Part shown: positions 3,372 through 55,224 of the stretch, piece after piece
Layout of the letters: each line of letters starts with the position of its first letter
How positions within the stretch are numbered: position 1 is the first letter of the stretch
NCBI GenBank assembly: GCA_027488865.1
Contig: JAIYAU010000025.1
Coordinates: 128,359 to 192,358 of the forward strand
Direction: 5' to 3'
DNA from: Cytophagaceae bacterium
GTDB lineage: Bacteria; Bacteroidota; Bacteroidia; Cytophagales; UBA9547
DNA: 64,000 nt
Notes under the pieces: model-generated
Told to the model about the DNA's origin: nothing
Database searches by the model: none
What the model saw: the letters and a program-made list of their open reading frames with translations, nothing else
Program-made: the position numbers and the translations under genes

Positions 3372-3877
3372 ACCACAAAGATAATTTGGCACAGTGCAAC
3401 TAGCGTGCACGGTAGTAAAAAGTTTAAGGTTAGTTGAAATAAAAAGGTAACATACTCGAAGGATGCTAGGAAGATGACCGTAGGATAGGCTTAAAAGGAG
3501 GGTTTCCCCTATGGCCCCACTGGTGCGCAAGTTTACTTCGTACCCAAAACATAGAAGCAACTCTGTTCTTATACCTGCAAAAAAGTACATAAACCTCAAT
3601 CCAAAAAACATACCCCAAAATTCTTTATTCCAACAACCGCGGAAAAAGAATCCGTTGCAGTTGCTTTTAGAGCCAAGCCCAACAAATCTATTACAGTTGT
3701 TTTTAAGTACCTGAAAAAAGGAGAAAATACTCCACACCCTTTCTTTCTCTACAATCAAATCCTAAAAATCTATAGCTTGTCCAACGTCAAAACCTTCATT
3801 CCTTATAATAAACCATCCATCAACTCATCCACAACGCTTATTTCTCACACTCAAACGTTCTTTGCCTCACTTCATTT

Positions 3878-4087
3878 CTTCATTCCTCCTAACGAAATAT
3901 CCATTTCTTAATCCAAGATGTTCATTTCTCGTAACAAGATGTTCATTCCTCGTGGTGAAACTGCCATCGCGTCAGTCACTTCGTTCATTTCTTAACAAAG
4001 ATCGTTCATTTCTTTACATGAGATGCTCATTTCTTAATCCAAAACCACTATCCCGTCATTCATTTCGTTCCTTTCTTTATTCAACTC
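3878..4087 (+). repeat. degenerate 21-bp tandem/phased array, ~10 units, core GTTCATTTC
   Basis: Cores sit at 3878, 3899, 3920, 3941, (3962 weak), 3983, 4004, 4025, (4046 weak) and 4067, exactly 21 bp apart. The unit consensus by eye is GTTCATTTCTTAAnnAAGAT. Confidence 0.8.
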
Positions 4088-4230
4088 CGCTGCTGTGTCA
4101 GAATAATGGATTTTGGCTTTGAAGATTCTTGAGCGTCTTGTATTTTTACTTAATAATCTTGTCAATCACAAATACTTAACGATAGGGGTAAAATTTTTCC
4201 CACACATATTAAAACAAACAATAACAAAAT

Positions 4231-5204: not shown

Positions 5205-5274
5205 AAAGCCAAATACACCAAACAATATATTAGCAAAGCGTGAGTTTCTTGTTTATCAAATTATCATATTAACC

Positions 5275-5333
5275 ATTCCTTGTAAGTACTATTTTAATTA
5301 TTTTGCGAGGCGTTTATTAGTATTTCATATACC
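5275..5333 (+). promoter_or_regulatory. dispersed leader/promoter-like repeat, copy A
   Basis: attccttgtaagtactattttaattattttgcgaggcgtttattagtatttcatatacc. It is alignable to copies B-F and ends 38 nt before ATG 5371. Confidence 0.6.
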
Positions 5334-5370
5334 AATATTAGAAGCAAGGAATTCGAGAAGTTTAACCAAA

Positions 5371-6285
5371 ATGACAGAACATCCTCACATATTGTTTTGC
5401 GAAAACCCAATCGATTTTAACAAAATTGATGAAGATTTTGAGGACCAATTCATTTCTGCAAAAGAAAACGGTTTTGAGACACTATTATTCAACTTTGAAG
5501 ATTTAACAAGTGCCAACAGGTTTTTAAGTTCAACAAAAAGAATAAAACCCAGTGACAAATTATTGAATGTAATTTATAGAGGCTGGATGTTGACACCAGA
5601 ACAGTATTCAATTTTATACAATGACCTTTTATCAAAAAACTACAAACTCATTAACACAGTTGAGGAGTATCAAAATTGTCATTATTTGCCTGAAAGCCTA
5701 AAATTCATTAGCAGCAGAACACCAAAAACAGTATTTGAAAAATTTGACAATGAAACTAGTATTGACAAGCTTCTCGAAGAATCAAAAATATTCGGACAGA
5801 AATCTGTAATTGTGAAAGATTATGTAAAGTCCGAAAAGCATGATTGGGAAACTGCCTGTTTCGTTGCTGATGCTTCAAAAATTGATAATTTCAAAAAGAC
5901 AATTAAAAAGCTTATAGAACTACGTGGCAAATATTTGAATGAAGGGATTGTAGTTAGAGAATTTATAGAACTAAACTACTTAACTATTCATTCAAAAAGC
6001 GGAATGCCTTTAACTGAAGAATATCGTTTATTTTTTTGCAATAAAAAACTTGTAGGTATTTACGACTATTGGGAAGAAGGTGAATACAAACGTAATAAAC
6101 CTGATACAACCGAATTTGAAGAAATTGCCAAACAAATTGAAAGCAATTTTTTCAGTATGGATATTGCACGACAAAAAAACGGAGAATTAATAATTATTGA
6201 ACTTGGAGACGGACAAGTTGCAGGACTTCCTGATAAAACAAACAGAAATGAATTTTATAAACAAATACGAAATTGCTGTTGTTAG
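5371..6285 (+). CDS. ATP-grasp domain protein
   Basis: 304 aa. The C-terminal part (VIVKDYVKSEK ... GIVVREFIEL ... RLFF ... ELIIIELGDGQVAGLP) matches the ATP-grasp fold nucleotide/Mg site pattern. Confidence 0.65.
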   Translation: MTEHPHILFCENPIDFNKIDEDFEDQFISAKENGFETLLFNFEDLTSANRFLSSTKRIKPSDKLLNVIYRGWMLTPEQYSILYNDLLSKNYKLINTVEEYQNCHYLPESLKFISSRTPKTVFEKFDNETSIDKLLEESKIFGQKSVIVKDYVKSEKHDWETACFVADASKIDNFKKTIKKLIELRGKYLNEGIVVREFIELNYLTIHSKSGMPLTEEYRLFFCNKKLVGIYDYWEEGEYKRNKPDTTEFEEIAKQIESNFFSMDIARQKNGELIIIELGDGQVAGLPDKTNRNEFYKQIRNCCC

Positions 6286-6395
6286 CTCCCAAGCTTAATA
6301 AGACACTTAAAATTATTTAATATTGAATCTTTAACCAGTTGCGTTTATATCGTCTATTGGCGTGTTAGGTTCAACTGTTTGACACGACACAGACA

Positions 6396-6932
6396 ATGAA
6401 AAAAGAAAATCTTTACAAGGAAATATCGGACGCAGTTCAAATTCTTTTAAAAATGGCTTGTGAATTTTCTTTCAATAATATTTCGGACAATTGTAAGTTT
6501 ATCATTTCGGAAATTAAACATAGCGACAAAAACTTCTTTGAGCAAAACAAAATTCGCAAAATAGACAATGACAAAAAGATACCAAAACCTCTTACTGACA
6601 CCATTGTTGAACTAGAGACGATGTACGCAAATCTTTATGACGTAAATTTATATGTTTATAAAGCAGATAGCCATTCAACTATTATTGAAATACAATATTT
6701 CCCACGTTCATCACACGACTTAGAATATCAAAAAATATCTGCAACTCAAGAGACAATGCTTCATTGCAAAGTAGCTGTTCCAGCTTATGCATCTGACAAC
6801 AAAGAAAAGTTTGACATTAACTGGCAACTCGGGACTTTAAATCATAAATGGAAAATGTTTTGGTGGCAACGGAAGACAAAAAACATCTTGAATGTTGTGG
6901 AGTTAAATTATAGACAGACACTTATGCAATAG
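6396..6932 (+). CDS. hypothetical protein (178 aa)
   Basis: Clean ATG ORF with protein-like composition. No family recognised. Confidence 0.55.
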   Translation: MKKENLYKEISDAVQILLKMACEFSFNNISDNCKFIISEIKHSDKNFFEQNKIRKIDNDKKIPKPLTDTIVELETMYANLYDVNLYVYKADSHSTIIEIQYFPRSSHDLEYQKISATQETMLHCKVAVPAYASDNKEKFDINWQLGTLNHKWKMFWWQRKTKNILNVVELNYRQTLMQ

Positions 6933-7098
6933 AAAAATCGACAACAATGAAAATACTTTAGCGACAGACCTAAGCGAAACAAAACGTGACGAGCAGAATG
7001 GAAAATACAGCAGCACCTAACAACTAAGGTTTCGTCTTGTTTGCAAAACAAGAGATGAAACCCTATGATACTTTAACTTTACCATCAACTAAAAAATA

Positions 7099-7186
7099 TT
7101 TATAGACTTTTTATTTACTCATTTTAACCCTTCCTTACTAATCCTTTTTTAACTATTTTGCGAGTAGTTTTTTAGTAATTACAGAC
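7099..7186 (+). promoter_or_regulatory. dispersed leader/promoter-like repeat, copy B (extended form)
   Basis: ttatagactttttatttactcattttaacccttccttactaatccttttttaactattttgcgagtagttttttagtaattacagac. It ends 20 nt before ATG 7207. Confidence 0.6.
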
Positions 7187-7206
7187 TGCAATTGTTAAAA
7201 TTTAGA

Positions 7207-7803
7207 ATGAAAAAATCAGCTATTTACTTCGGATTAATTTTACTGATTACTAGTTGTAATTCTAGAAAAACAGCGTTAATAGTTGATGAAGTCAAATCTT
7301 TTAAAACAAATGTCAAATACTTCACTCCCGATAAATTTGAATTGGAAAAAATTCCTTATCCAAAAATAGATTCACTATTATTTCTATCCCACTTTTCATC
7401 AATTCCAGAACTAACAGAATATTCTGACCACACTTCGTCTGTCTATGTTTATTCCAAGAACAAATTTTCAAATGGAATTATTGGTATAACCTTCATGGCT
7501 CAAGACGATATGTTTACTAAAAAATATATCATGGTTTTGCTTAATAAAGATTATAAAATAGTAGATGCTTATTTAATAGCCTATTCAAATATGGACGAAG
7601 AGTGGTACGAAGTAACTGAAACCAGAATTACAAATGAAAATTTATTTAAAACAAACAAAGTTTCCTGTGAAATATTGTCGCATGTGGATACGATTAATTA
7701 TTGTAAATGTGATTCATCTAATATTTTGTTGAAACTGGAACCAAAGGGAGCATTAGTAAATTTTAAAGAAGATAAATATCAATATACAAGGGTTAATAAA
7801 TAA
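7207..7803 (+). CDS. hypothetical lipoprotein
   Basis: MKKSAIYFGLILLITSCNS is a signal peptide plus lipobox Cys. The track start at 7192 is a TTG extension. Confidence 0.65.
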   Translation: MKKSAIYFGLILLITSCNSRKTALIVDEVKSFKTNVKYFTPDKFELEKIPYPKIDSLLFLSHFSSIPELTEYSDHTSSVYVYSKNKFSNGIIGITFMAQDDMFTKKYIMVLLNKDYKIVDAYLIAYSNMDEEWYEVTETRITNENLFKTNKVSCEILSHVDTINYCKCDSSNILLKLEPKGALVNFKEDKYQYTRVNK

Positions 7804-7899
7804 AAAAGTTAAACTAAACATCCGTGTTTCGAAATGAAGGATGTTGGGGCACAAGCCTAACGAAAAAATCATATTAATCACAATGTTAAGGATTTAACA

Positions 7900-8445
7900 A
7901 TGGAAATAGGACAAAAATTTAATCAGTTGACTTTTGAGGAGTATTTCTACTATGTTGACAACTACAAAAAATATACAGACTTCAACACCCTTGGACTATA
8001 TCGTTCAATTGTGGAGAATGTAAAATTAAGTTTGAAAGAAAAAATTGATGTAAGGGAATATTGTCACCTAACGTTTAAAAAAACGTTCGACTTTTTACAG
8101 CTAAAAGATCCCAAGGTGTTTTTTGAGATTTCAACTTTGGGTCAAGAGCTTACCAATGGTGACATAGTCAAGATATGGGACGACATCAAAATTAATCAGC
8201 AAAAAATATTAAAAGACAAGAAAATTAGGCATAGAAATTTTGGGATATATTCAAAACACAATTGCGGTTATGAGAATTGTGTTTGGAACGGACTAATGAT
8301 TAAGCAAGGTTCTTGGTTAGCTGATGGAAATATGCATTTCACAGACGACAAAAATAAATACCAACAGAAACTAAATTCAGAAGGTAGAAAATCAGACAGG
8401 AAGAAGGAAAGACAAATAATAAGCAGAGAACTTGATAATAATTAA
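7900..8445 (+). CDS. hypothetical protein (181 aa)
   Basis: ATG ORF with a basic C-terminal tail. No family recognised. Confidence 0.5.
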   Translation: MEIGQKFNQLTFEEYFYYVDNYKKYTDFNTLGLYRSIVENVKLSLKEKIDVREYCHLTFKKTFDFLQLKDPKVFFEISTLGQELTNGDIVKIWDDIKINQQKILKDKKIRHRNFGIYSKHNCGYENCVWNGLMIKQGSWLADGNMHFTDDKNKYQQKLNSEGRKSDRKKERQIISRELDNN

Positions 8446-8660
8446 AGGTAGTCGAGTGGTTCAATCTTTATACCTCCGTGGCCGGTTGTATATAAGACAT
8501 TAATGTTTCGGATTGTATGCCAAATGTTATTTAGACTGAAGAGATAGCCAAACACATTGCTAAAACACCTTAGTTTATAGAGATAAAACAAGAAATTACT
8601 CATATAGTAAATACTTTACCAGATGAAGTTTTGGGACTTGCAAGAAGTTTTAGAAATTCA

Positions 8661-8748
8661 TTATAGACTTCTTCAACTATAATTTTTCCCTTCCTCGCTA
8701 AAACTATTTTAACTATTTTGCATAAGGTTTATTAGTTTTTTTACAAAC
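8661..8748 (+). promoter_or_regulatory. dispersed leader/promoter-like repeat, copy C (extended form)
   Basis: ttatagacttcttcaactataatttttcccttcctcgctaaaactattttaactattttgcataaggtttattagtttttttacaaac. It ends 19 nt before ATG 8768. Confidence 0.6.
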
Positions 8749-8767
8749 CCCCAACACCAACCAATAA

Positions 8768-9337
8768 ATGATAGACATTTTACGCAATCATATAACGAGC
8801 AGACTTGGAAATGATCTTGACAATTTGGACAAAGTGATTTCAACTTTTAAACACATTTCAACCAAACGCAACGAGCAACTTTTACAACAAGGCGAAACTT
8901 GCAAATATGTTTACTTCGTTGCCAAAGGTTGTTTACAGGTCTACGTGTATGACCAAGATTTTAACGAAACTACCAGAGACATCGTGATTGAAGACAATTG
9001 GTGTTCAGAACTCTTGAGTTTTGGAAGTGGCAACCCAGCAACAGAAAATATCAGGGCTGTAGAGCCTTGTGAGCTATTTGCCATCGACAGACAATCATTT
9101 CAAACCATGATGGAAACGGTTCCACAGTTTGACAAAGTGTATAAACAAATCCTTGAAGCCTCTTACGCCAATTCTGTTTATCGTATCAACACATTTGTTT
9201 CATTAACAGCACTTGATAGAATAAAATGGTTGATGGAATACCGCCCTACCTTAATGAACAGACTTTCTAGCAAACTCATCGCTTCTTATTTGGGCATCAA
9301 CAAAGATGTTTTTAGTAGATTAAAAGCCAAATTGTAA
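8768..9337 (+). CDS. Crp/Fnr family transcriptional regulator
   Basis: 189 aa. A cNMP-binding beta-roll pattern (LLQQGETCKYVYFVAKGCLQVY) is followed by a C-terminal HTH (IASYLGINKDVFSRLK). Confidence 0.85.
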   Translation: MIDILRNHITSRLGNDLDNLDKVISTFKHISTKRNEQLLQQGETCKYVYFVAKGCLQVYVYDQDFNETTRDIVIEDNWCSELLSFGSGNPATENIRAVEPCELFAIDRQSFQTMMETVPQFDKVYKQILEASYANSVYRINTFVSLTALDRIKWLMEYRPTLMNRLSSKLIASYLGINKDVFSRLKAKL

Positions 9338-9415
9338 AACATCGACTTTTGTCATCGTTTAAGGAAATTAGAATGTTGAATTTTGTTTTATTATTCACAA
9401 CTAATATTTCAAAAT

Positions 9416-9769
9416 ATGACAGAGTATTTATTATTATTTCGAAATGCGAGTGCCGACGGTGGCTACTTGACAACTACCCAGGATATGGCTGAAGATATGC
9501 CCAAGTGGCAATCTTGGATAGGCCATATTGCTATGCAAGGCAAACTAGTACATACCGCGCCTGTTCGTTATGACGCTGCCGTTGTAAATAATCATGGCAT
9601 AACCATGGGACCACATAAAGAAGCCGATACAGTTATGGTTTCGGGTTTTTTAATCTGCAAGTCCGACAGTTTGGAAGATGTGCAAGCATGGAGCAAGACC
9701 TGCCCAATTCTTAAATATCCCAACAGTTCTGTAGAAATCAGACCACTTATTCCTTTTCCAACCAATTAA
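9416..9769 (+). CDS. YciI-like (DGPF/YCII domain) protein
   Basis: MTEYLLLFRNAS...MPKWQSWIGHI...VSGFLICKSDSLEDVQAWSKTCPIL...VEIRPL fits the YciI family pattern. The track start at 9383 is a TTG extension. Confidence 0.75.
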   Translation: MTEYLLLFRNASADGGYLTTTQDMAEDMPKWQSWIGHIAMQGKLVHTAPVRYDAAVVNNHGITMGPHKEADTVMVSGFLICKSDSLEDVQAWSKTCPILKYPNSSVEIRPLIPFPTN

Positions 9770-9779
9770 TTTTACGACA

Positions 9780-10193
9780 ATGGACAAAATTTTAAACTTA
9801 GGAAAATATATTTTCCCACTTTCGTTTTTACTGTATGTTGGTTTACACCTTGGCAAACCAGAAGTTGGCGCGGCATTTGTGCCAGATTTTATTCCCTTCC
9901 CCTACTTTTGGAATTATTTCACTTTGGTTTGTATTCTACTATTTATTGTAAGTGCGGTTATTGGCAAATACGATAAATTGGCTTACACACTCATGGCTTT
10001 GTATGTCATCTTAATGGCTGTGTTGGTGCATTTGCCACGCGCCATGGGACACGAACTAACTTCTACCATGATGGCCGATTTGGGAAGAGAAAAAGAATTA
10101 GAAATGGTAAATTTTTTTCGTAACATAATGGTAACAGGAGCTTTGCTAGCTTTTGCTAAATTTGTAGCTAAGGACAAAAGCATAATTAACTAA
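9780..10193 (+). CDS. small 4-TM membrane protein (DoxX-like)
   Basis: 137 aa with four hydrophobic segments. Its position after a YciI gene is common for DoxX-type proteins. The family call is tentative. Confidence 0.55.
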   Translation: MDKILNLGKYIFPLSFLLYVGLHLGKPEVGAAFVPDFIPFPYFWNYFTLVCILLFIVSAVIGKYDKLAYTLMALYVILMAVLVHLPRAMGHELTSTMMADLGREKELEMVNFFRNIMVTGALLAFAKFVAKDKSIIN

Positions 10194-10211
10194 AACCCAA
10201 ATCAAAACAAA

Positions 10212-10598
10212 ATGGAAAAATTAAGCACAGCGACCAACGCTTTAAACTGGTTTGAAATTCCTGTAACGGATGTTGCAAGAGCAAAAAAATTCTATGAAAC
10301 TGCATTTGATATTGAAATGCAAGAATTGGATATGATGGGTATACAAATGGTGATGTTCCCATCAGAAAGTCCAAAATCGAGCGGCGCTTTGGTAAAAGGT
10401 CCAAATCACAAACCAAGTACCGAAGGTTCAATCATTTATTTAAACGGAAACCCAAATCTGCAAATAGTGCTTGACAAAATTGAAAGCGCAGGTGGAAAAA
10501 TAACCTTGCCAAAAACTAATATTGGTGGAGATAACGGATACATGGCCTTTTTCATTGACACCGAAGGCAATCTTGTTGGACTTCATTCTGGACAATAA
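10212..10598 (+). CDS. VOC (glyoxalase/bleomycin-resistance fold) family protein
   Basis: NWFEIPVTDVARAKKFYETAFDIEM ... GYMAFFIDTEGNLVGLHS is the typical VOC pattern. Confidence 0.85.
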   Translation: MEKLSTATNALNWFEIPVTDVARAKKFYETAFDIEMQELDMMGIQMVMFPSESPKSSGALVKGPNHKPSTEGSIIYLNGNPNLQIVLDKIESAGGKITLPKTNIGGDNGYMAFFIDTEGNLVGLHSGQ

Positions 10599-10621
10599 GT
10601 AATAATTTTTTATTCAAACTG

Positions 10622-10658
10622 AAGTGGGACTTTCGACGGTTCCACTTTTTCTGTTTTT
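10622..10658 (+). terminator. rho-independent terminator candidate
   Basis: The aagtgg(gac)...(gt)tccactt hairpin is followed by tttctgtttttat, 24 nt after the stop of 10212..10598. Confidence 0.5.
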
Positions 10659-10787
10659 ATGAAAGTCAAAGAGAGTAAAGGTTTAAAACTGCTTCAACTT
10701 AAAAGGATAGATTATGGGGTTCTAAAGTAAATCTAACACTAGTTTTTTATTCCAAATTTTGTATTTTTAAAAATTAATAGTGGTAAA

Positions 10788-10850
10788 TGGTTTAAATCCA
10801 AAACTTAGCCCACAGTTTAAACCGTGGGCTGGATTTAAACCATGGGCTGG
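10788..10850. repeat. 13-bp inverted repeat pair plus 18-bp tandem duplication
   Basis: TGGTTTAAATCCA (10788-10800) and its exact reverse complement TGGATTTAAACCA (10830-10842). There is an inner hairpin AGCCCAC/GTGGGCT, and a tandem pair gtttaaaccgtgggctgg / atttaaaccatgggctgg (10815-10850). Confidence 0.7.
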
Positions 10851-10876
10851 TTGTGATTTCTAAAAGGATGTATTAA

Positions 10877-11446
10877 ATGGAAAATGAAATAATAAAATAC
10901 CTGTCGAGATACATTCCAGTTACCAAAGAGTTGGAAGAAGCCATCAGTAAAAGTGGATTTATCCAATGCTTTGACAAGGGCACGCTTTTGGTAGAAGAAG
11001 GCAAGTTTACACAAAAATGTTTTTTTATTCTAAAAGGATGTGTAAGAAATTACTACATAAAAGACGGTGAAGAAAAAACGACAGAATTTTATACCGAAGA
11101 GCAAGCCATAATCGCTTCGGCAAATGGCAAAAATATCCCGTCCACCTATTATCTTGAATGTATGGAGCCAACCATTGCTGCAGTGAGCGATCCCGAATTT
11201 GAAGAAGATATGTATCGAAAATTTCCTGAACTAGAATCATTAAGTCGGGTGATGGCTGAAAAGATTTTAACCAAACAAATAGAAACATTTGCCGAATTTA
11301 AAATGGCTTCACCTGAGGAAAGATACTTAAACTTTTTAACGACCAGACCGGATTTAATTCAGCGCGTGCCGCAGCATCAAATAGCCAGTTATTTGGGTAT
11401 AAAACCCGAATCACTAAGTAGGATACGCAAGCGAATAATGAAATAA
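10877..11446 (+). CDS. Crp/Fnr family transcriptional regulator (second paralogue)
   Basis: 189 aa with the same architecture as 8768..9337 (FFILKGCVRNYY ... IASYLGIKPESLSRIRKR). Confidence 0.85.
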   Translation: MENEIIKYLSRYIPVTKELEEAISKSGFIQCFDKGTLLVEEGKFTQKCFFILKGCVRNYYIKDGEEKTTEFYTEEQAIIASANGKNIPSTYYLECMEPTIAAVSDPEFEEDMYRKFPELESLSRVMAEKILTKQIETFAEFKMASPEERYLNFLTTRPDLIQRVPQHQIASYLGIKPESLSRIRKRIMK

Positions 11447-11542
11447 ACTACAATAAGGATCTACATTTTTCATTTCTTAACTTAAGTCAACGAGCAAAAA
11501 ATCTTGGACTTATACTTTTGTAATAAATTATTTTACAACAAA

Positions 11543-12202
11543 ATGTATAAAAAGATGGGCTTAAAATATTATTCACTCGCATTTACGTTTGCATTAATTG
11601 TAGCAAAAGGATTTGGACAAAATCCTGAACAATCAGCAAAGACTTCGCCTAAAGATTCTGTTCGCGATTTCAAATTTTCAATTCACACGACTTGGTTGTC
11701 GTTTGTTAATTTTGAAGAGGAGAAAAAAAATCTTCAGCATTATGAGTTGCACTTTAGGTACAAACTCACCGACAAAGATAAGGTTGGAATAAAACTAGCC
11801 ACTTGGAAACTATTTGCACCAATGGGCATTCCTTTATGGGATCCATTATTTTTGAAGGAAAGCGAATTCTATCCTGGCCGAGTACGTGAAGACGGCCTGG
11901 GCTTGACCTATCAACGAATGCTTTGGAAAGGATTATTTGCTCAAGTTGAAATAATGCCTCAATTAAAAACCTATTTTGATGCGAATAATAAAAAAATTGG
12001 GAATGGTTTTAAATTATACACCTCTTATCACCTAGGTTATCATATTAAATTGTTTAAGAATAGAATGTTCATAGAACCCCAGATTCATTGCCAGTATTGG
12101 CCAATAAATACCAACGTTCCAGAAGGCTTCAAAGCAAAAGAAAATAGATGGAATAACTATTTTCTATTTGAGCCTAACATATATGTAGGTGTTAAATTTT
12201 AA
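11543..12202 (+). CDS. putative small outer-membrane beta-barrel protein
   Basis: Signal peptide MYKKMGLKYYSLAFTFALIVAKGFGQ, alternating aromatic strands and a C-terminal ...IYVGVKF. A perfect TActTTTG box at 11513-11520 supports ATG 11543 over the TTG at 11504. Confidence 0.6.
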   Translation: MYKKMGLKYYSLAFTFALIVAKGFGQNPEQSAKTSPKDSVRDFKFSIHTTWLSFVNFEEEKKNLQHYELHFRYKLTDKDKVGIKLATWKLFAPMGIPLWDPLFLKESEFYPGRVREDGLGLTYQRMLWKGLFAQVEIMPQLKTYFDANNKKIGNGFKLYTSYHLGYHIKLFKNRMFIEPQIHCQYWPINTNVPEGFKAKENRWNNYFLFEPNIYVGVKF

Positions 12203-12224
12203 ATCGGCAGCAACTTTAGAATGT

Positions 12225-12265
12225 ACAAACCAGATTTATTAAATCGTTTACACAATCTGGTTTGT
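12225..12265 (+). terminator. hairpin after 11543..12202
   Basis: 11-bp stem ACAAACCAGAT / ATCTGGTTTGT with a 19-nt loop. The T-tract is weak. Confidence 0.4.
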
Positions 12266-12307
12266 ATTCCTAGTCAAGAATAAACCCATAACTGACTGAT
12301 TTATAAA

Positions 12308-12560
12308 TTTGTGACATTTTTTGACGATACGATTATTTTTGTCACAACTTTGTGACAAATTTTAACGATACGTTTTTTTTTGTCACAACTTTGTGACATT
12401 TTTTGACGACACGTTTTTTTTTGTCACAACTTTGTGGCATTTTTTGACGATACGATTATTTTTGTCACAACTTTGTGGCATTTTTTAACAATACGTTTTT
12501 TTTTGCCACAACTTTGTGGCATTTTTTGACGATACGATTTTTTTTGCCACAACCTTGTGA
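12308..12560 (+). repeat. 41-bp tandem repeat, 6 full units plus a partial 7th, each carrying an 8-bp inverted repeat
   Basis: Units start at 12308, 12349, 12390, 12431, 12472 and 12513. The unit is TTTGTGACA-N23-TGTCACAAC. Units 5-6 carry the paired change TTTGTGGCA ... TGCCACAAC. Confidence 0.9.
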
Positions 12561-12675
12561 AAAATATTCTTAGACCTAAATGCATGACTTTCTCAACTAT
12601 ATTGCAAATAATCTTAACGCTCCAAAGAACTAGAAAAACTCACTTTGCTCAAGCATTTTAAGGATAAAGGTATTT

Positions 12676-12736
12676 TTTTCTTACTAAAAGTATTTTTATT
12701 ATTTTGCAATGGAGTTTGTAAGTTTTTCATAGGCTG
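12676..12736 (+). promoter_or_regulatory. dispersed leader/promoter-like repeat, copy D
   Basis: ttttcttactaaaagtatttttattattttgcaatggagtttgtaagtttttcataggctg. It is almost identical to copy E and ends 30 nt before ATG 12767. Confidence 0.6.
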
Positions 12737-12766
12737 ACAATTTTAAACCAAGCAAAAGAATAAACA

Positions 12767-13225
12767 ATGACAGAATATTATTTTGAAACAAGAGAGTTCG
12801 GGCTTTCTGATAAAGGAATTCATTTATTAAGAAGTGGTTATAACTATGAGACCCACGACTATTCCGACATTGACACGTTGACAGTTGAAAAAGGAAAGGA
12901 GTTAAATAATTGGATTATAATTTTTGTAATAGGACTCTGTTTGGTTACATTTTCAATTTGGTATAGTTTCCGATTATTTAATATAATTTACAATCGTGAA
13001 GTGAATGTTATTTATATCGAGAATTTATTTGTTCCACTAATTCCATTTATGGTTGGACTTTATTGCGTTTATACCTCCACTAGAAATGGCACAGTTTTGA
13101 GACTCAAGACAACAAAGGATAAAAAGGATAAATTTTCATTAAGAGAAATTGAAAAAGAAAATAAACTTGAGGGCTTCAAACAATTATTAAAGGACAAATT
13201 ACATACAAAAGTAAAAATTTATTAA
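12767..13225 (+). CDS. hypothetical 2-TM membrane protein
   Basis: 152 aa with two hydrophobic helices (WIIIFVIGLCLVTFSIWY and FVPLIPFMVGLYCVY) and a Lys-rich tail. Confidence 0.55.
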   Translation: MTEYYFETREFGLSDKGIHLLRSGYNYETHDYSDIDTLTVEKGKELNNWIIIFVIGLCLVTFSIWYSFRLFNIIYNREVNVIYIENLFVPLIPFMVGLYCVYTSTRNGTVLRLKTTKDKKDKFSLREIEKENKLEGFKQLLKDKLHTKVKIY

Positions 13226-13286
13226 TAACGGATCTACCGTTTAATAAGAGCGATTTTTTTAGGGAAAGAGCATTTTAGACAATTAC

Positions 13287-13346
13287 TTCCTTGCTAAAAG
13301 TATTTTTATTATTTTGCAATGGAGTTTGTGAGTTTTTCATAAGCTA
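13287..13346 (+). promoter_or_regulatory. dispersed leader/promoter-like repeat, copy E
   Basis: cttccttgctaaaagtatttttattattttgcaatggagtttgtgagtttttcataagct. It ends 29 nt before ATG 13376. Confidence 0.6.
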
Positions 13347-13375
13347 ATGTATTAACTAAACCATTACAACCCACC

Positions 13376-14272
13376 ATGGTAATATTCTTATTAATAATTG
13401 GCTGCATTATATTGGTGATTCTTGGCCTTGCTTTTTATTCAATAAATTCAAGACGACCAAAATTTTTTAGTGGCAATTTAAAAGCGTTTGAAAAAAGTCT
13501 TTTTAATGAATTAGAAAATAAATTACCACAAGAGGTTGGACAGCTAATTCCTAAACAGCTCTCCTTTTTAAAAAATGGTGTGAGACTTTATTTTCCTAAA
13601 AGTTATACCCTTGAACTTTACGATGACAAAACAAATCCAATATCTAGTGAACATCTCTTTAATCGCAAAGACGAATTTAAATTGGCAACAATTTCATTTA
13701 CTCACAACGAAATAAAATATAAAGCGGACTTTCAAACTTATTCAGGAAGAGTTTGGGGTATGACAGTAAGACCAAGCCCAAGGAAATTTTTAGGAACAAA
13801 GATTAAAACATTTGACAAGTTTAAATTAACCAACGACCCGACAGAGCAACTTGATTTAGAAATTGTGACCGAATATTTTGCAGACAATGAGGTTTTTCAT
13901 GGTACACTTCAAGACCTAAAACAGAAATATGGTCTGACACAAATAAAGAAGCCTTTGCCAGACAGACAGAGGGAACTATTTATTAGGCAATGTGAAACAA
14001 AACTCCCTATAGATTACATTTCATTGTGTGAACAGACAAATGGTTTTAATATTAAGGAAGTATGCATTGGTGGACTTGGTTCTTGGCAATCAGTTCCTCT
14101 TGATGATGATAATTATTTAATGCTTGCTGAAAAAAGTAGCGGTTGTTTGTCAATAAAGCAATCAAAACGATCTACCAAACTCAAATACCATTCTTATGAA
14201 GACGAGACAGACACTAGAGATTTAGGGGACAACTTCCTTAAAGCCTTAGACACTTTTCTAAAAATCGAGTAA
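13376..14272 (+). CDS. membrane-anchored protein with C-terminal SMI1/KNR4 (SUKH)-like region
   Basis: N-terminal TM MVIFLLIIGCIILVILGLAFY. The C-terminal LPIDYISLCEQTNGFNI...YLMLAEKSSGCL...LGDNFLKALDTFL resembles the SUKH-1 pattern (LPxDYxxxxxxxNG). Confidence 0.5.
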   Translation: MVIFLLIIGCIILVILGLAFYSINSRRPKFFSGNLKAFEKSLFNELENKLPQEVGQLIPKQLSFLKNGVRLYFPKSYTLELYDDKTNPISSEHLFNRKDEFKLATISFTHNEIKYKADFQTYSGRVWGMTVRPSPRKFLGTKIKTFDKFKLTNDPTEQLDLEIVTEYFADNEVFHGTLQDLKQKYGLTQIKKPLPDRQRELFIRQCETKLPIDYISLCEQTNGFNIKEVCIGGLGSWQSVPLDDDNYLMLAEKSSGCLSIKQSKRSTKLKYHSYEDETDTRDLGDNFLKALDTFLKIE

Positions 14273-15881: not shown

Positions 15882-15915
15882 TTAGACACAAAATTTGACT
15901 AAACAGCTACAGGAA

Positions 15916-18807
15916 ATGAAGACCATCGTTTTAGTGTTCTTGACATTGATAATCTATTATTCTGATGCTCAAATTAGTACAGGAATAAATAATGAAAATC
16001 CTAATTCCAAAGCAGCATTGGACATCAAAGGTAGTTTTACCACGCCACAAGGCCTACTTATTCCTAGATATTCAACCGATCAAAGTCTAATTTTTAACTT
16101 ATCAGGCAATAACGCCGTGGGCCTTACCTATTATGATACCACTGCAGGCATTTTTAGATATTACCAAGGAAATGGCATATGGTCTACTTATGGAGGTATT
16201 GGATCTGGGTCAAACAACTGGTCGCTTACTGGAAATTCGTTTACTGCAGCGGATACAGCGGGGTCTGGAATTAAGTTTTTAGGTACTACAAATCTTACTC
16301 CATTGATTTTCATGACCAATGGTATACAACGAATGAGGATTGGACGAAATGGAAACTTGGGTATAGGTATGAATCCAAATTCTGGGATACCTGTCTCAAT
16401 AAAATCTACTGGTATTGGACAAATACTACAAATAGAGTCAAGTGCGGCGCAAGAACCACTTTTTGAATTTAGAGAAACTTCCAATAATTATGCGCGGTTG
16501 GTACTTAACAACGGTGGTACCAACGCAATTCAGCTTTCGGCAGGGCCCGATTTTTCCACCTATTTTAAAGGAACGTATGTTGGTATAAACAATTCATCTC
16601 CTACAGCTCGGTTTAATGTTACAGGATGGAGTAGATTCGATACCTTGGCTGGATCGGGTATTGCCTCAGTAATGGTAAATGCCAATGGAGATTTATATCG
16701 AGGTTCATCGGGTTTAGCCTGGAGTATAATTGGCAATTCGGGGACCAACAATACCAATTTTTTGGGCACAACAGATAACGTCGATTTGAGGTTTCGTACA
16801 AATAACTTGACTCGCATGGTGATAGATTCAGCAACTGGCAATATAGGTATTGGTACATCCACTCCAAACGGTGCACTTGATATCATGAGAGAAGGTATTC
16901 TTCCTGCTTTTTTGATAGCTACAAGCCATAGCGGTACTAATAATGCTAATGGCACCTCTATCATCATGAGAAGATCTGCTGGAACTACTGCCTCTGGGGC
17001 AGCCTTAGTTGGTACAGATGATCTTATAGGGCAAATAGCAGCTCAAGGATATACGAGTGGAAATGTCTTTGCAAATGCAGCAGGCATTCTTCTAGAAGTA
17101 GATTCCATTTCGTCGGTTACTAGCATGCCTGGCAGGATACGATTTACCACCACCCCAGTTGGTACAATTACGCCTATAGAAAGAATGAGAATTTCTAACA
17201 ATGGAAGGGTTGGTATTGGTACTACAGCCCCACTAGCAACTTTACATATTCAGTCACCAAGTGTGATTACCTCCAACACCCAATTTGGTAATTTACACGT
17301 TTCGTCTTCAAACTCCCAAACTTCTAATCTCGGCGGGTCTATTACGCTGGGAGGCTATAACGACATCGCAGCTACCAGTTTAAGCGTTTTTGGATCTATT
17401 GAAGGCCGTAAAACTACCGCCACTTCTGGTCAAAGCTCAGGTTATTTGATATTCAAAACCAATACATTAGGTATATTGTCAGAACAAATGCGTATTGCAA
17501 ATAATGGTAATATAGGGATTGGTACTGCTGTTACTGCGACCAAAAAGGTAAGTATCGATATTCCTTCAACAAATACCACAGAAGCGGACGCATTATCCAT
17601 TAATACAGCTTATAGTGGCATTGGCTCTAAAAGGGGTCTTTACATCAATCTTACTTCTGATGGAAGTGGTAACCATTATGGAATATATAATGATGTGGAT
17701 GGTTTGGCGGGAGATATAAGTCCTTTGTATGGAACTTACAATTCATTTACTCCTAATGGAACCGGAACTGCATATGGAAGTTACACAACTATTTCGAACG
17801 TTGGTACTGGTTTAAGATATGGTGCATATTATGAACTTACTAGTGGGGCTGCTAATGTTAGTCCTATCTACAGTACATATTCAAGGCTTAATGTAACTGG
17901 TACAAACACACATTATGCCTATTATGGTGAATTTCTTGGAGCTGGCACGGGCCTAAAGTATGGAATTTATATGGATGGGGACTCGATGAATTACTTTAAT
18001 GGTCGTGTAGGTATCGGAACAACCGCCCCTGCGGGAAAGCTTCATGTAGAAGAACGAGATGGAACTATCTTTACCTCTAATAATTTCGGTGATGGTGGCC
18101 CAGGTCTAGTAATTAATAATACTTCACCTACCGACGATGAAACCACGTTTTTGGAATTTAGGGCCAATAACACTCGAATAGGATCTATCCACATGAGATA
18201 TGTTAGTGGCGTTAATACTTCTGCTATGAATGTTGGTACCTATAATAATAACGCTCTGGTAATGGTAACAAATTCTTTTGAAAGAATGAGAATAACCCAA
18301 GCCGGTCTTGTAGGGATTGGAATGACCCCAGTATATCAACTTCAATTGTCGACCAACAGTGCAGCCAAACCAACTTCTGGTACATGGACCGTAGCCTCTG
18401 ATGCAAGGTTAAAAAAGGACATTGCTCCATTCAAGTCTGGTCTTACCGATGTTCTGTCAATTAATCCTGTTTGGTTTACTTACACTGGTAAAGCTGGTAT
18501 GCCAAAAGAAACAGGAGTTGGTGTAATTGCCCAAGAACTGCAAAAAGTAGCTCCTTATATGGTTGGCACTTGGAAACACAAAGAAGACAATTTGGAAACA
18601 GAATATTTAGCAGTCGACAATGGGGCAATGACTTACATGCTTGTGAATGCTACCAAAGAGTTACATGAAAAGCTAGAAATGGTAACCACCCAAAACTTGC
18701 TTCTGAAAAATGAAGTCGAAAATTTAAAGCGATTAAATCTACAATTTGCCTCTGAAATAGAAAAAATAAAGTCAGTTCTTGGATTAGGAATCGAGGCAAA
18801 AAAATAA
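15916..18807 (+). CDS. secreted tail-fibre-like repeat protein with C-terminal peptidase S74 (intramolecular chaperone) domain
   Basis: Signal peptide MKTIVLVFLTLIIYYSDAQ. A motif xRMRIxxxGNVGIGTxxP recurs at least 6 times. The C-terminal SDARLKKDIAPF...GVIAQELQKVAPYMV matches the S74 Ser-Lys autoprocessing motif SDxRxK, followed by a final coiled coil. Confidence 0.85.
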   Translation: MKTIVLVFLTLIIYYSDAQISTGINNENPNSKAALDIKGSFTTPQGLLIPRYSTDQSLIFNLSGNNAVGLTYYDTTAGIFRYYQGNGIWSTYGGIGSGSNNWSLTGNSFTAADTAGSGIKFLGTTNLTPLIFMTNGIQRMRIGRNGNLGIGMNPNSGIPVSIKSTGIGQILQIESSAAQEPLFEFRETSNNYARLVLNNGGTNAIQLSAGPDFSTYFKGTYVGINNSSPTARFNVTGWSRFDTLAGSGIASVMVNANGDLYRGSSGLAWSIIGNSGTNNTNFLGTTDNVDLRFRTNNLTRMVIDSATGNIGIGTSTPNGALDIMREGILPAFLIATSHSGTNNANGTSIIMRRSAGTTASGAALVGTDDLIGQIAAQGYTSGNVFANAAGILLEVDSISSVTSMPGRIRFTTTPVGTITPIERMRISNNGRVGIGTTAPLATLHIQSPSVITSNTQFGNLHVSSSNSQTSNLGGSITLGGYNDIAATSLSVFGSIEGRKTTATSGQSSGYLIFKTNTLGILSEQMRIANNGNIGIGTAVTATKKVSIDIPSTNTTEADALSINTAYSGIGSKRGLYINLTSDGSGNHYGIYNDVDGLAGDISPLYGTYNSFTPNGTGTAYGSYTTISNVGTGLRYGAYYELTSGAANVSPIYSTYSRLNVTGTNTHYAYYGEFLGAGTGLKYGIYMDGDSMNYFNGRVGIGTTAPAGKLHVEERDGTIFTSNNFGDGGPGLVINNTSPTDDETTFLEFRANNTRIGSIHMRYVSGVNTSAMNVGTYNNNALVMVTNSFERMRITQAGLVGIGMTPVYQLQLSTNSAAKPTSGTWTVASDARLKKDIAPFKSGLTDVLSINPVWFTYTGKAGMPKETGVGVIAQELQKVAPYMVGTWKHKEDNLETEYLAVDNGAMTYMLVNATKELHEKLEMVTTQNLLLKNEVENLKRLNLQFASEIEKIKSVLGLGIEAKK

Positions 18808-40300: not shown

Positions 40301-40392
40301 TTTTTTAAAGTAAGCTATCTATAAAGTATGTTTACAACATAAGTCATCAAAATGGAGCAATAAAATTATATTTACTTTGATTTTCATACTTC

Positions 40393-40450
40393 TTCCTTGT
40401 AAATAGATTTTTTAACTATTTTGCGGGGAGTTAGTAAGTTTTTTACAGAC
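40393..40450 (+). promoter_or_regulatory. dispersed leader/promoter-like repeat, copy F
   Basis: ttccttgtaaatagattttttaactattttgcggggagttagtaagttttttacagac, 138 nt before ATG 40588. Confidence 0.55.
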
Positions 40451-40587
40451 CGACCCTGATTAAGAGTCATAAAATTTAGAAGCCCTCAATATCAAAGAAT
40501 AATAAACCAAACAAAAAAATAGCTTTAAAATTAAAATAAATTGTTGGTTGGATTTTGAAGTAATAATACTCTCAAATATAGTTAATT

Positions 40588-41823
40588 ATGAAAAAGCAAT
40601 TTAATTATAAATCAAACCTATTGTTAATATTATCTATAACCTTATTGGTGAGGATAATAACAGTCTTTTTAATAGGAAAAATTCCTTGCATGGATTTTTC
40701 TTATTGGAATGAGGCTAATAATATTTTAAATGGTTCCTCTAAACAACCCATTTACCTGGTCCCATCCTATGGTTTTTTACTTTATTTCCTTAATAAAGTT
40801 TTGGGTAGTTTATTTCTTGCCTCGTCCATCTGTTATGTTTTGTTTTCATTTTGCATAGCATTGTTAATGTATTTAATCGCAAAAGTAATGTTCAATGAAA
40901 GAACCGCGACCATAACTTTGCTTTTAATAACATTCATGCCGAATTTAACGGTAGCAGTTGCTGGATATTCACACACTTCCACTGTAAGTTTGGCCTTTAT
41001 TCTATCAGCTTTGTATGTATTGATTTTAGGTAACTTTTCAAAAATGAAGCTAACCTCATGTATTATTTACTTTACAGTCTCATCCGCACTGGCAATTTTT
41101 ATAAGGCCTGAAAGTATAATTATTATTATTAGTATACTATTATTAACCATTCTAAACAAAGACCTTAAACTGATTAATCGTTTAAAAATAATTTTGATTT
41201 CCTCAGTTCTATTGTTTACAGCAATTAAAGGACACCAAATTTGGATAAAACACAATACCAATTCCCAATATGCTGGTACATTTTCTGATAATAAATACAC
41301 CTATTTAACATTCATGCATACTTTATCTTTAAAAAATGGAACAGGAATTGTCGACTCAATAGCATTAGATTTAAGTATAAAATCTTTTGGAAGTCCAGAA
41401 TCAAACAGATGGTCAACGATAAAAGCAATTAGTAAAAATCCTAAAATTTTTGTTTCGAATATATTATATAATATAAAGGAATTATTAGACTCATGTGCTC
41501 ACCCACTTTTCTACCCATTTTACCTATATTTTTTCATAGGAATTGGAATTTTTTCAATCTGGAATAAGAAAAATAGATATCTTCAACTATTACCCCTTAT
41601 TTTGCTGTTTTCATCAATCATTCCCGTTCTAGTTTTTCATGTTGAAATAAGGTATTTGGTAAATTTTTTAGTATCCATTATACTAATATCCAGTTATGGC
41701 CTAGCTGAAATGAATGATCTCGGCAAAACTAAAATAACACTTGCGTTATTGATATTCGCCAATTTTATAATTTATGCCGTGTATTTGATAAATAATAGCA
41801 AACTAGAGAGCTTGTGTGGCTAA
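40588..41823 (+). CDS. polytopic membrane protein, GT-C/ArnT(GT39/83)-like glycosyltransferase candidate
   Basis: 411 aa with ~11 hydrophobic segments. The overall layout resembles 4-amino-4-deoxy-L-arabinose / PMT-type transferases. The call rests on topology only. Confidence 0.45.
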   Translation: MKKQFNYKSNLLLILSITLLVRIITVFLIGKIPCMDFSYWNEANNILNGSSKQPIYLVPSYGFLLYFLNKVLGSLFLASSICYVLFSFCIALLMYLIAKVMFNERTATITLLLITFMPNLTVAVAGYSHTSTVSLAFILSALYVLILGNFSKMKLTSCIIYFTVSSALAIFIRPESIIIIISILLLTILNKDLKLINRLKIILISSVLLFTAIKGHQIWIKHNTNSQYAGTFSDNKYTYLTFMHTLSLKNGTGIVDSIALDLSIKSFGSPESNRWSTIKAISKNPKIFVSNILYNIKELLDSCAHPLFYPFYLYFFIGIGIFSIWNKKNRYLQLLPLILLFSSIIPVLVFHVEIRYLVNFLVSIILISSYGLAEMNDLGKTKITLALLIFANFIIYAVYLINNSKLESLCG

Positions 41824-41953: not shown

Positions 41954-42940
41954 CTAAAAACTATACCACACCCCCCCTATCAGTCTTCCAGCATTCCCAA
42001 TTACTGGCCCATTTAATTTCTCGTATACAGGGAGTTGCCAAAGTGCTTGCAAGGTTATAGACTTAAAAATAATGTCGACTCCAAAATTTCCAAAATAAGA
42101 TTTTCCACCTGTAGTGTGGACGATTTTATCCTGTACTATATCTTTTTGGGATTGTTCAAGGTAAATTCCTGATTTTGGAATTATACGCCATTTTTCATTA
42201 ATCTCAAAAACGTAAAAAAGATTGGTGTTTAAATTAATACTGTTCCCAAACAATACATCATTTTTATTTTTTGTATTTAATTTATAGTTAGTGCTCACAT
42301 CAAGTCCACTAGATGCATAAGTAAGTGTATAATTGAGTCTAAAAATAAAATCAACCGACCCTGTACCTAATTGTATATCAGGCATGAGTGTTTGATTATT
42401 GATTCGTTTGTTAAAGGAACCTGACGGTAACTTTACTGCTAATCCTGGTTTTATATAATGTTTAAATTTTGTGTTTTCTATAGTTTTGATGTAGTCTGCA
42501 GCTAAAATAACGTCTCCTATACCCTTTACAATTATTGTGCTGTCGGTTACTGGACGAGTCATGCTAAAAACGTTTTTGTAATAAACCTCATTTTTGCTAA
42601 AAGGACATAAAATTGTAATATTCCATTTGTTTTTAAGATTTATATTAGCCCTAAACTCTGTGGTTAGGTATCGTTCATAATCATATTTACTCTTTTCTAC
42701 CAAAATACCATCAGGTTCATGCGATATCCTTGCATTGTCTAAACTTTTAGAATCGACAAAAAATTGATGATTTTCGTCTAGATGTTTATATCCGTTAAAA
42801 ACTCTGTATCTAGTAAATATCCCAATATACGACTTGTTACTTCTGTTGGCGTATTCAAAAATATTACATACATCACATGCTAAGGCTGTTGTGCCAATAA
42901 GGGTAAAAACCAACAGAATTATCAAATTTCTATACTTCAT
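41954..42940 (-). CDS. putative outer-membrane beta-barrel with N-terminal CxxC
   Basis: Signal peptide ...GTTALA followed by CDVCN, then beta-strand periodicity and a C-terminal ...GGVWYSF. Its ATG overlaps the upstream stop (ATGA at 42940-42937). Confidence 0.6.
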   Translation of the reverse strand: MKYRNLIILLVFTLIGTTALACDVCNIFEYANRSNKSYIGIFTRYRVFNGYKHLDENHQFFVDSKSLDNARISHEPDGILVEKSKYDYERYLTTEFRANINLKNKWNITILCPFSKNEVYYKNVFSMTRPVTDSTIIVKGIGDVILAADYIKTIENTKFKHYIKPGLAVKLPSGSFNKRINNQTLMPDIQLGTGSVDFIFRLNYTLTYASSGLDVSTNYKLNTKNKNDVLFGNSINLNTNLFYVFEINEKWRIIPKSGIYLEQSQKDIVQDKIVHTTGGKSYFGNFGVDIIFKSITLQALWQLPVYEKLNGPVIGNAGRLIGGVWYSF

Positions 42941-43959
42941 TGGTTATTTCTGACAAAGGTAGTGTCGTTTAAAGTTTGCAAAAACAGCTTTATACTAGCT
43001 TTTTCTTCCTCAGTTATTGAAAAGGATGCTTGAAGAAAGGGCGACAAGGTAGCCGAACTAATAATTCCATTTTGATAATGATCTAAAACCTCATCTATAG
43101 TAGCTAATCGTCCATCGTGCATGTAGGGTGCGGTGAAGCTCAAATTTCTAAGTGTCGGGGTTTTATATTTACCTATATCATTTTGGGACAATGAAATCCG
43201 TGCTCTTCCAAGTTTAGGGTCGTCCATATTTCCATCTAAATCTGGAAATTGATTGTCCAACCCGTTATTATGATATTGAAGATCTGTAAATAAAACACCA
43301 CTGTGGCATTGTTGACATTTTTGTTTAAATACCTTTTCACCTTGTAGCTCCTCATTTGACAGCACAAGTTGTTTAATGAGGTATTGATCGTATTTAGAAT
43401 CTCCTGAAACAAGGGTTCGTTCAAATTGCGCTAGCGCGGTGGTAATGTACTGCGTGATAATTGTATCCTTGCCAAATGCCTTATAAAACAGTGCATTATA
43501 ATCTGGCAAAGCTTTTAATTTAGCAGGCAATTTAGCCAAATCCATGTTCATTTCATTATGTGCTGTGATAGGGCCAAGGGATTGCAATTCCAAACTTTTT
43601 GCTCCACCATCCCAAAAAAAATCAGTTTGCCAAGCCAAATTAAATAGTGGCATAGCATTTCTCACACCGGCTAGTTGATTAACACCTAAGCTCACGGGAG
43701 ATTGATCTGAAAATGATTTACTTGGTTTATGGCATGAAGCACAAGAAACAGCATCATTGCTAGAAAGCGCAGGATCAAAAAATAGTTTTTTCCCTAAGTC
43801 AATTTGATTTTTATTAGGAATATTATCTTTAAGTGCCTGTGGATAAGGAAAATAAGATGGAACCTCCACCAATATAGGGGAAGGCTCCACATTATTTTTA
43901 TTTGTATCACAGGCTATTAATACCCATGACAACAATAGTATACCAATTTTCTTTTGCAA
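42937..43959 (-). CDS. mbnH: di-haem cytochrome c peroxidase / MauG-like enzyme (MbnH-type)
   Basis: Lipobox LIAC. Two CxxCH motifs (CASCH, CQQCH) and TPTLRNLSFTAPYMHDGRLATIDEVLDHY. It has a TTG start 9 nt after the upstream stop. Confidence 0.8.
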   Translation of the reverse strand: MQKKIGILLLSWVLIACDTNKNNVEPSPILVEVPSYFPYPQALKDNIPNKNQIDLGKKLFFDPALSSNDAVSCASCHKPSKSFSDQSPVSLGVNQLAGVRNAMPLFNLAWQTDFFWDGGAKSLELQSLGPITAHNEMNMDLAKLPAKLKALPDYNALFYKAFGKDTIITQYITTALAQFERTLVSGDSKYDQYLIKQLVLSNEELQGEKVFKQKCQQCHSGVLFTDLQYHNNGLDNQFPDLDGNMDDPKLGRARISLSQNDIGKYKTPTLRNLSFTAPYMHDGRLATIDEVLDHYQNGIISSATLSPFLQASFSITEEEKASIKLFLQTLNDTTFVRNNQ

Positions 43960-43967
43960 TGGGGTGC

Positions 43968-44753: not shown

Positions 44754-44839
44754 TTTGTGTAAATTTTTAAAATGTATAATTAATCTAGGACTATAAAAGC
44801 TGTTAGATTAAAATAAAAAGTTGTAAATTCTGATAATTG

Positions 44840-45220: not shown

Positions 45221-45261
45221 TTGATGGCAAAACTAGCCTAGAAAATTAATAAAACAAAATA

Positions 45262-50013: not shown

Positions 50014-50045
50014 GAGTGAAAAAGAGTTTTATGTGTTGAGTATTA

Positions 50046-50618: not shown

Positions 50619-50684
50619 ACAGTAAAAATTAAAGGCTACACTATGGTACTTACTATGTTTTATTAAAATTAAAAAACCTATTTA

Positions 50685-53780: not shown

Positions 53781-53826
53781 AAAATTTTACTTTAAAAATT
53801 GTGATTACTATTTTTTGCTAATATGT

Positions 53827-54600: not shown

Positions 54601-54623
54601 TGGTGTTCAAATTTTCGTTTCAA

Positions 54624-55208: not shown

Positions 55209-55224
55209 CTTGATAAATGAGCTA

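Follow-up and report, generated by a model that had tools for sequence, protein, structure and literature searches.

A 64-kb stretch of chromosomal DNA (the window, i.e., the whole stretch that was analyzed) was found to carry exactly six copies of a 60- to 90-bp repeat, all on the + strand and each facing an adjacent downstream gene. We consider it reasonably likely that this repeat is a lineage-specific, duplicated promoter and 5'-leader module, a family of "putative mobile promoters," which co-regulates accessory operons. Five of the copies (A to E) lie within 8.1 kb, and the sixth (F) is located 27 kb away. The copies were counted over both strands of the window; their extents, their scores against an nhmmer profile of the six copies, and the positions of a promoter-like box and of a conserved block downstream of it are as follows.

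Copy A, 5261-5340, + strand: 55.3 bits; pattern match; box TATTTTGC at 5299-5306; downstream block at 5312-5333.
Copy B, 7100-7191, + strand: 51.7 bits; box at 7154-7161; downstream block at 7167-7188.
Copy C, 8661-8753, + strand: 50.3 bits; pattern match; box at 8714-8721; downstream block at 8727-8749.
Copy D, 12671-12741, + strand: 51.0 bits; box at 12700-12707; downstream block at 12714-12735.
Copy E, 13282-13351, + strand: 54.7 bits; box at 13310-13317; downstream block at 13324-13345.
Copy F, 40388-40457, + strand: 57.2 bits; box at 40417-40424; downstream block at 40430-40452.

The profile returned its own members at 50.3 to 57.2 bits and the runner-up site, on either strand, at 4.3 bits. 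The member scores are circular, since these very copies went into the profile, and the informative part is the 4.3-bit runner-up. The pattern TTTTWAYTATTTTGCN{5,6}GTTNNTNAGT, which covers the central 30 nt and was also designed on the six copies, matched six times in the window versus 0 times in 100 dinucleotide shuffles. An earlier reading of the window from its letters (the sequence-only reading) had placed six + strand copies at these sites, and direct reading, alignment, and the profile search all agreed with it; a separate repeat search of the window recovered the six copies independently. The six copies are a discrete family, neither AT-rich noise nor the general promoter consensus of the organism.

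Alignment of the copies yielded a common core of ~62 nt, in which 31 columns are invariant. Within this core, pairwise identity was 67 to 75% for 14 pairs and 90% for the pair D/E, which was 91% identical over 64 nt while flanks and downstream genes were unrelated. The near-identity of these two copies in front of unrelated proteins, already remarked on in the sequence-only reading, points to recent copying and not merely to common binding sites. Copies B and C had ~25 further nt in common upstream, an AT-rich extension (local alignment of 7100-7176 with 8661-8736). The D/E pair, together with the clustering of five copies within 8 kb, suggests that the copies may have spread by local duplication or gene conversion. 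Breaks in short-read contigs told us little about further copies: contig L020, from the same organism, begins at window position 13300 inside copy E, as expected from a k-mer repeated in copy D, and contig L021 begins inside copy B, but since the other contig breaks fall in unique sequence, break points are uninformative as a proxy for extra copies.

Each copy consists of two conserved blocks and, between them, a linker of 5 to 6 nt that is the most variable part of the element. Block 1 comprises CCTTCCTT, a T-rich spacer TAAAAnTATTTTnAn, and the box TATTTTGC; block 2 is GTTTnTnAGTnnTTnAnAnnC. Conservation thus continues for ~25 nt beyond the box, as had been noted before. Apart from differences in T-tract length, the linker holds the sole internal indel, a 1-nt insertion common to D and E, which makes the linker of D 1 nt longer than those of A, B, C, and F. 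When a separate profile was used for each block, neither block 1 nor block 2 was found alone in the window.

The box TATTTTGC was present in all six copies and fits TAnnTTGY exactly. TAnnTTGY is motif SM5 of the transcription start site map of Flavobacterium psychrophilum, in which it lies at -12 to -5, was confirmed by promoter mutagenesis, and has one base less between TA and TTG than the sigma-A box has (PMC9723704). The sequence-only reading had described the element as promoter-like with a box "one T short" of TAnnTTTG, a description that matches this motif. Canonical TAnnTTTG boxes, often TAAATTTG, were seen 15 to 63 nt before the ATG of many other genes in the window, including ftsK, lolA, and several genes within the apparent array. 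Because these other genes carry TAnnTTTG, the repeat represents a separate promoter class and not the general consensus. For F. psychrophilum, it is also reported that promoters can dispense with the -33 TTTG box and that they often have T-rich extensions on the 5' side (PMC9723704). By SM5 geometry, the predicted +1 would fall in the variable linker, where five of the six copies have a purine by eye, and block 2 would occupy approximately positions +2 to +22 of the presumed transcript. That the part surrounding the predicted +1 is the most variable and holds the indel is as expected of a promoter.

Two other interpretations of this region were tried and rejected. A sigma-54 reading of the TTGC was ruled out by eye, as no GG dinucleotide is present at -24, 10 nt upstream of the GC; for a terminator reading, no GC-rich stem precedes the T-runs, and a terminator scan flagged none of the six copies. 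Copies D and E alone have in their linker an ATG that begins a mini-open reading frame (mini-ORF) of seven codons, MEFVSFS* (12709-12732 and 13319-13342), with its start upstream of the predicted +1; the two versions differ by a synonymous change (GTA to GTG) and in the stop codon used (TAG to TAA). Copies A, B, C, and F lack this mini-ORF, which is probably a coincidence.

The repeats lie close to the genes that they face. Measured from the repeat ends used in the sequence-only reading, which had given 19 to 38 nt for five copies and 138 nt for the sixth, the distances to the start codons of A to F were recomputed as 37, 20, 19, 30, 29, and 137 nt, in agreement with those figures; from the profile-based core ends they were 15 to 31 nt in five of six copies and 131 nt in F. 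The distance back to the preceding stop codon varied from 57 to 469 nt. The repeat-headed units and genes are the following.

Unit A, 5371-6932, + strand: R2K-clade ATP-grasp gene (5371-6285) and a gene for a 178-amino-acid (aa) protein with no assigned function (6396-6932).
Unit B, 7207-8445, + strand: putative lipoprotein gene (7207-7803) and a gene for a 181-aa protein with no assigned function (7900-8445).
Unit C, 8768-10598, + strand: genes for a cNMP-binding, Crp-like regulator, a YCII-like protein, a membrane protein, and a glyoxalase-fold protein (Pfam).
Gene D, 12767-13225, + strand: 152-aa protein with two predicted transmembrane (TM) helices (ORF list).
Gene E, 13376-14272, + strand: 298-aa protein in which an N-terminal TM helix precedes a C-terminal SUKH-fold domain.
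Gene F, 40588-41823, + strand: PMT_2 (GT-C-like) membrane glycosyltransferase.

Pfam searches upheld the ATP-grasp, Crp/Fnr regulator, and GT-C-like calls of the sequence-only reading as R2K clade (R2K_3, 2.9e-31; R2K_2, 6.9e-26), cNMP binding, and PMT_2 (9.6e-07), respectively; the nearest homologue of the gene F protein is 53% identical. No significant Pfam match was obtained for the proteins of unit B or for the gene D protein. The identification of the former's first product as a lipoprotein, based on a signal peptide with a Cys read from the sequence, and that of the latter as a 2-TM protein are plausible. The SUKH-like call for gene E found no direct Pfam match and stood at the level of family and fold: 13 of 52 homologues matched SMI1_KNR4 (Pfam), and an alignment-based AlphaFold2 (AF2) model with a pLDDT of 95.8 had as its top PDB match 3d5p, a SMI1/KNR4 structure of Bacteroides fragilis (probability, 1.00), followed by the SUKH proteins 2icg and 2prv. 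A single-sequence AF2 model (pLDDT, 39.8) was discarded in favor of the alignment-based one. That the downstream ORFs are mutually unrelated, as claimed before, held in an all-against-all BLASTP comparison of the six downstream proteins, in which no pair fell below an E value of 0.1. Unit A is closed by a hairpin at ~7028-7062 (by eye) and unit C by a terminator-like hairpin at 10621-10648 (terminator scan). The later genes within repeat-headed units are spaced by 10 to 110 nt in an operon-like manner and have no repeat of their own, so that the repeat marks the head of a transcription unit, whether of one gene or of several, and not the start of each gene.

To what extent the repeat travels with its genes can be judged from homologues of gene E. 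A homologue on contig L024 is 72% identical at the amino acid level and 74% at the nucleotide level, and its nucleotide similarity to the window sets in 10 nt before the ATG; for a homologue on contig L025 (~85% nucleotide identity), it sets in 3 nt before the ATG. Farther upstream, neither contig is related to the window or contains the repeat, which indicates that the promoter-leader before gene E is lineage specific. We regard this comparison as the strongest evidence here for a presumed promoter replacement or capture. Judging from these comparisons and from the unrelated downstream genes, the repeat unit is independent of its cargo. The role as a landing or recombination site that was considered in the sequence-only reading is not supported (see below).

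The L025 homologue (positions 103-384; SRR31309789) is itself internally deleted, a 93-aa remnant that joins the N-terminal 56 and the C-terminal ~37 residues. Its ~85% nucleotide identity exceeds the 72 to 75% found across lolA-pheT between the window and L018, the contig with the nearest pheT relative (80% aa identity), and could reflect either a closer relative or horizontal transfer.

Beyond the window, exact-pattern scans gave five single matches in 185,579 species genomes, three in JGI metagenomes, and none in IMG/VR, with patterns that were fitted to the six copies and could miss diverged relatives. The single matches come from unrelated taxa and score at most 19 bits against the full profile and were therefore attributed to chance. 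BLASTN of copy E against plasmid and phage collections returned chance fragments only. The repeat was likewise missing at the loci around PMT_2 homologues of at most 53% identity (L008 to L014), on the nearest pheT relative (80% aa identity; L018 and L019), whose contigs stop short of the site orthologous to copy F, and in the nearest NCBI metagenome-assembled genome (L023; pheT, 61% identity).

In the explanation that we favor, local duplication, gene conversion, or promoter capture would have placed copies of the module ahead of six or more mutually unrelated transcription units of this Cytophagales lineage. Block 1, at about -42 to -5 and made up of CCTTCCTT, a phased T-tract spacer, and TATTTTGC, would serve as the recognition site of RNA polymerase, with a -7 box of the TAnnTTGY (SM5-like) class in place of the housekeeping TAnnTTTG. 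The transcription start would lie within the variable linker, ~5 nt past the GC. Block 2 would then form the first ~20 nt of each mRNA or act as an operator overlapping +1, and a common factor may read it at the sequence level. The outcome would be that mostly lineage-specific, AT-rich accessory operons come under one common control.

Several points weigh against this explanation. Promoter activity and the position of the transcription start, as well as a role for block 2, are what we infer from sequence. The comparison with SM5 crosses classes, from Flavobacteriia to Cytophagia. A -33 TTG is present in only three of the six copies, which fits the reported dispensability of the -33 element in Flavobacterium. 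A candidate 7-bp hairpin at the 5' terminus of block 2 was rejected: pairing was compatible in 85.7% of cells versus 28 to 43% with the partners slid, yet this did not surpass column shuffles, covariation was not above shuffles, and the hairpin was negligible in five of six copies (0 to -1.9 kcal/mol).

Among known systems, the favored module most resembles the putative mobile promoters, of which more than 4,000 families upstream of non-paralogous genes have been described and which have been proposed to rewire transcription (Matus-Garcia, Nijveen, and van Passel 2012; PMC3575422). In both cases, very similar upstream noncoding DNA precedes non-paralogous genes within one genome and is not linked to a known mobile element. 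The definition of those families asked for an identity of 80% or more across 50 nt or more, in a window from -150 to -50 (PMC3575422). The pair D/E exceeds this identity (~90% over ~64 nt), whereas the other 14 pairs, at 67 to 75%, fall below it; the six downstream genes are non-paralogous. The repeat described here differs in lying nearer to the start codon (-95 to -31) and in including a conserved, presumably transcribed segment. Likeness to SM5 rests on the TAnnTTGY box of all six copies, with its TA-to-TTG distance one base shorter than in TAnnTTTG, and the link of SM5 to lipopolysaccharide genes is loosely echoed by the one downstream envelope glycosyltransferase; SM5 differs in being a short sigma-type motif without reported 60-nt conservation. 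A possible working model is offered by the erp (ospE/ospF/elp) genes of Borrelia burgdorferi, in which an "upstream homology box," a conserved promoter-operator, allows divergent genes to be co-expressed via common DNA-binding proteins (PMC9112904). The likeness would be a functional one: erp loci are equivalent loci on paralogous cp32 prophage plasmids, and their products have common leader peptides, whereas the genes studied here are chromosomal and fully unrelated, and binding proteins are only presumed.

If copying played no part, the same pattern could arise as a pure regulon signal, from independently evolved sites for one alternative sigma factor and one regulator. The star-like pairwise identities of 67 to 75% in all pairs but one are what such a regulon would give, and so is the blocky conservation, with invariant TTCCTT, TATTTTGC, and GTT..T.AGT around a variable linker, which fits functional constraint. 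However, ~31 invariant positions over ~62 nt, including the promoter spacer, are far above the usual need of a sigma or transcription factor; D and E agree at 90% even in idiosyncratic linker bases and their common 1-nt insertion; B and C have the extra upstream extension in common; and neither block ever stands alone in the window. We therefore hold this explanation to be unlikely. Spread by transposition, as a nonautonomous element of the miniature inverted-repeat transposable element kind with an outward promoter in the manner of Correia elements, appears more doubtful still. The repeat is short, multicopy, intergenic, and lineage restricted, and known mobile repeats (Correia, ERIC, and REPIN) do carry promoters (PMC3575422), but the copies have no terminal inverted repeats in common, target-site duplications were not found, the edges are ragged and not sharp, and single-stranded DNA (ssDNA) and RNA folds are no better than those of shuffles. 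Moreover, all six copies face the downstream gene in one and the same orientation, an outcome not expected of random insertion. Least probable of all, in our estimate, is a structured cis-regulatory RNA (riboswitch or leader) or a family of small RNA genes transcribed from an upstream promoter. Conservation does reach beyond the promoter box, and several copies contain 10 to 19 nt of complementarity between part of the element and the region before the start codon; the complementary partners, however, change from copy to copy. No Rfam match was obtained at gathering thresholds in the whole window, fold z scores lay between -1.6 and +1.1 (leader) and between -0.2 and -1.4 (whole element), and the consensus fold reached -3.4 kcal/mol with an unfavorable covariation term. 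As no significant fold, covariation, or stability was seen, no structural RNA role is proposed.

The sequence-only reading had likened the locus to a cassette array, by analogy to integrons and to the orphan-immunity arrays of Bacteroidales (rAID-1; published criteria in Ross et al. 2019, bioRxiv 10.1101/471110). On such a view, the repeat would be where units recombine or land, and the recombinase would be encoded beyond the window. Several features invite this comparison: five copies lie in 8.1 kb within a co-directional + strand run of small accessory genes with repetitive intergenic sequence (5.2 to 14.3 kb), and most repeat-headed units are slightly lower in GC, at 28 to 31% versus 34% for the window (units A and B, 30.7%; D and E, 30.9%; F, 27.9%; C, 35.1%; window, 33.8%). 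The downstream proteins also include one SUKH-fold protein of the immunity type and one R2K ATP-grasp, and a PD-(D/E)XK_2 "transposase"-family gene is located at 1846-2790. The analogy nevertheless fails the defining tests within the available sequence and is not supported. As the earlier reading had itself stated, no recombinase is in view: no tyrosine (XerD-like) or serine recombinase, integrase (IntI or Phage_integrase), resolvase, or DDE domain was detected in window ORFs of at least 240 aa, and no recombinase or integrase domain was found in a further 1.6 kb upstream of the window (L007). The bottom strands of the six copies form no attC-like ssDNA fold (z, -0.65 to +0.57 versus shuffles), and no inverted repeat is consistently present around them. 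An attC site lies 3' of a promoterless cassette ORF, whereas this repeat is promoter-like and lies 5' of its units, which hold one to several genes; some genes in the run use ordinary TAnnTTTG promoters, and copy F sits among core genes 27 kb off. Only one downstream protein is immunity-like, the others being an R2K ATP-grasp, a Crp-like protein, glyoxalases, and uncharacterized proteins, and PADLOC gave weak partial matches only (a cNMP-binding-domain type for the Crp-like protein and a 19-bit Specificity_I for the lipoprotein). Cassette capture is accordingly very improbable. Scarcely more probable is an active "promoter cassette," in which dedicated machinery, either a recombinase beyond the window or the nearby PD-(D/E)XK_2 nuclease-family protein, would place the 70- to 90-nt unit before acquired or silent genes or recombine such units; if true, it would amount to a lineage system that domesticates foreign genes under one regulator.

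The window, at 33.8% GC, carries ftsK, lolA, pyrF, and pheT; copy F is located 2.4 kb downstream of pheT in a neighborhood that also holds the other three genes. Named pheT relatives belong to Cytophagales (56 to 61% identity), and one short-read contig reaches 80%; on the basis of these identities, the organism is an uncultured, deep-branching member of the Cytophagales. Short contigs of run SRR30952584 carry proteins identical to those of the window.

Further observations concern the surroundings of the repeats. The PD-(D/E)XK_2 (Rpn-like) gene at 1846-2790, the sole recombination-related gene in view, lies 2.5 kb upstream of copy A and has an internal 21/42-nt coding repeat (2605-2697). At 3860-4090, at least eight copies of GTTCATTTCT(T) at ~21-nt spacing form iteron-like direct repeats, which lie in the gap between a - strand gene ending at 3758 and a PhyH gene; the 86-aa "ORF" at 3862-4122 is therefore probably not a gene. 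An 18-bp direct repeat, TTTAAACCATGGGCTGGA (10816-10850; 1.9 copies), is located directly upstream of the second Crp-like gene (10877) and could be its operator. Between a gene ending at 12202 and copy D, a 41-bp unit is tandemly repeated 6.2 times with 89% matching (12308-12560), and every unit has the palindrome TGTCACAACTTTGTGACA followed by a T-run; two readings fit the unit, a CRP/FNR-box-like dyad and a weak terminator-like hairpin, and the Crp-like genes at 8768 and 10877 are nearby. The co-directional run of accessory genes ends with a gene for a 970-aa protein (15895-18807) with a C-terminal Peptidase_S74 domain, an intramolecular chaperone of the endosialidase/tail-fiber type. Farther away, duplicated diheme peroxidase (CCP_MauG) genes, one adjoining an MbnP-family gene, are found at 42937-46359 (paralogous DNA 71 to 77% identical, 2.37-kb spacing), and a - strand signaling cluster at 49639-60418 encodes a SiaC-family phosphoprotein, DUF6272, a PAS-GAF-SpoIIE phosphatase, a GAF protein, CheB, CheR, and a 1,387-aa TPR-CHAT protein.

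The repeat family is a known kind of feature and opens no new category of system. If the favored explanation is true, it would be a clean natural case of promoter reuse in Bacteroidota, with a rare TAnnTTGY box in front of unrelated genes, and for one of these, gene E, the module was demonstrably not inherited together with the gene. It would also provide a second data point, beyond Flavobacterium, for the poorly understood SM5 class, and the 70-nt module is a ready test piece for the function of the conserved, presumably early-transcribed block. For the organism itself, the six copies would define a compact candidate regulon in an uncultured, deep-branching lineage of the Cytophagales.

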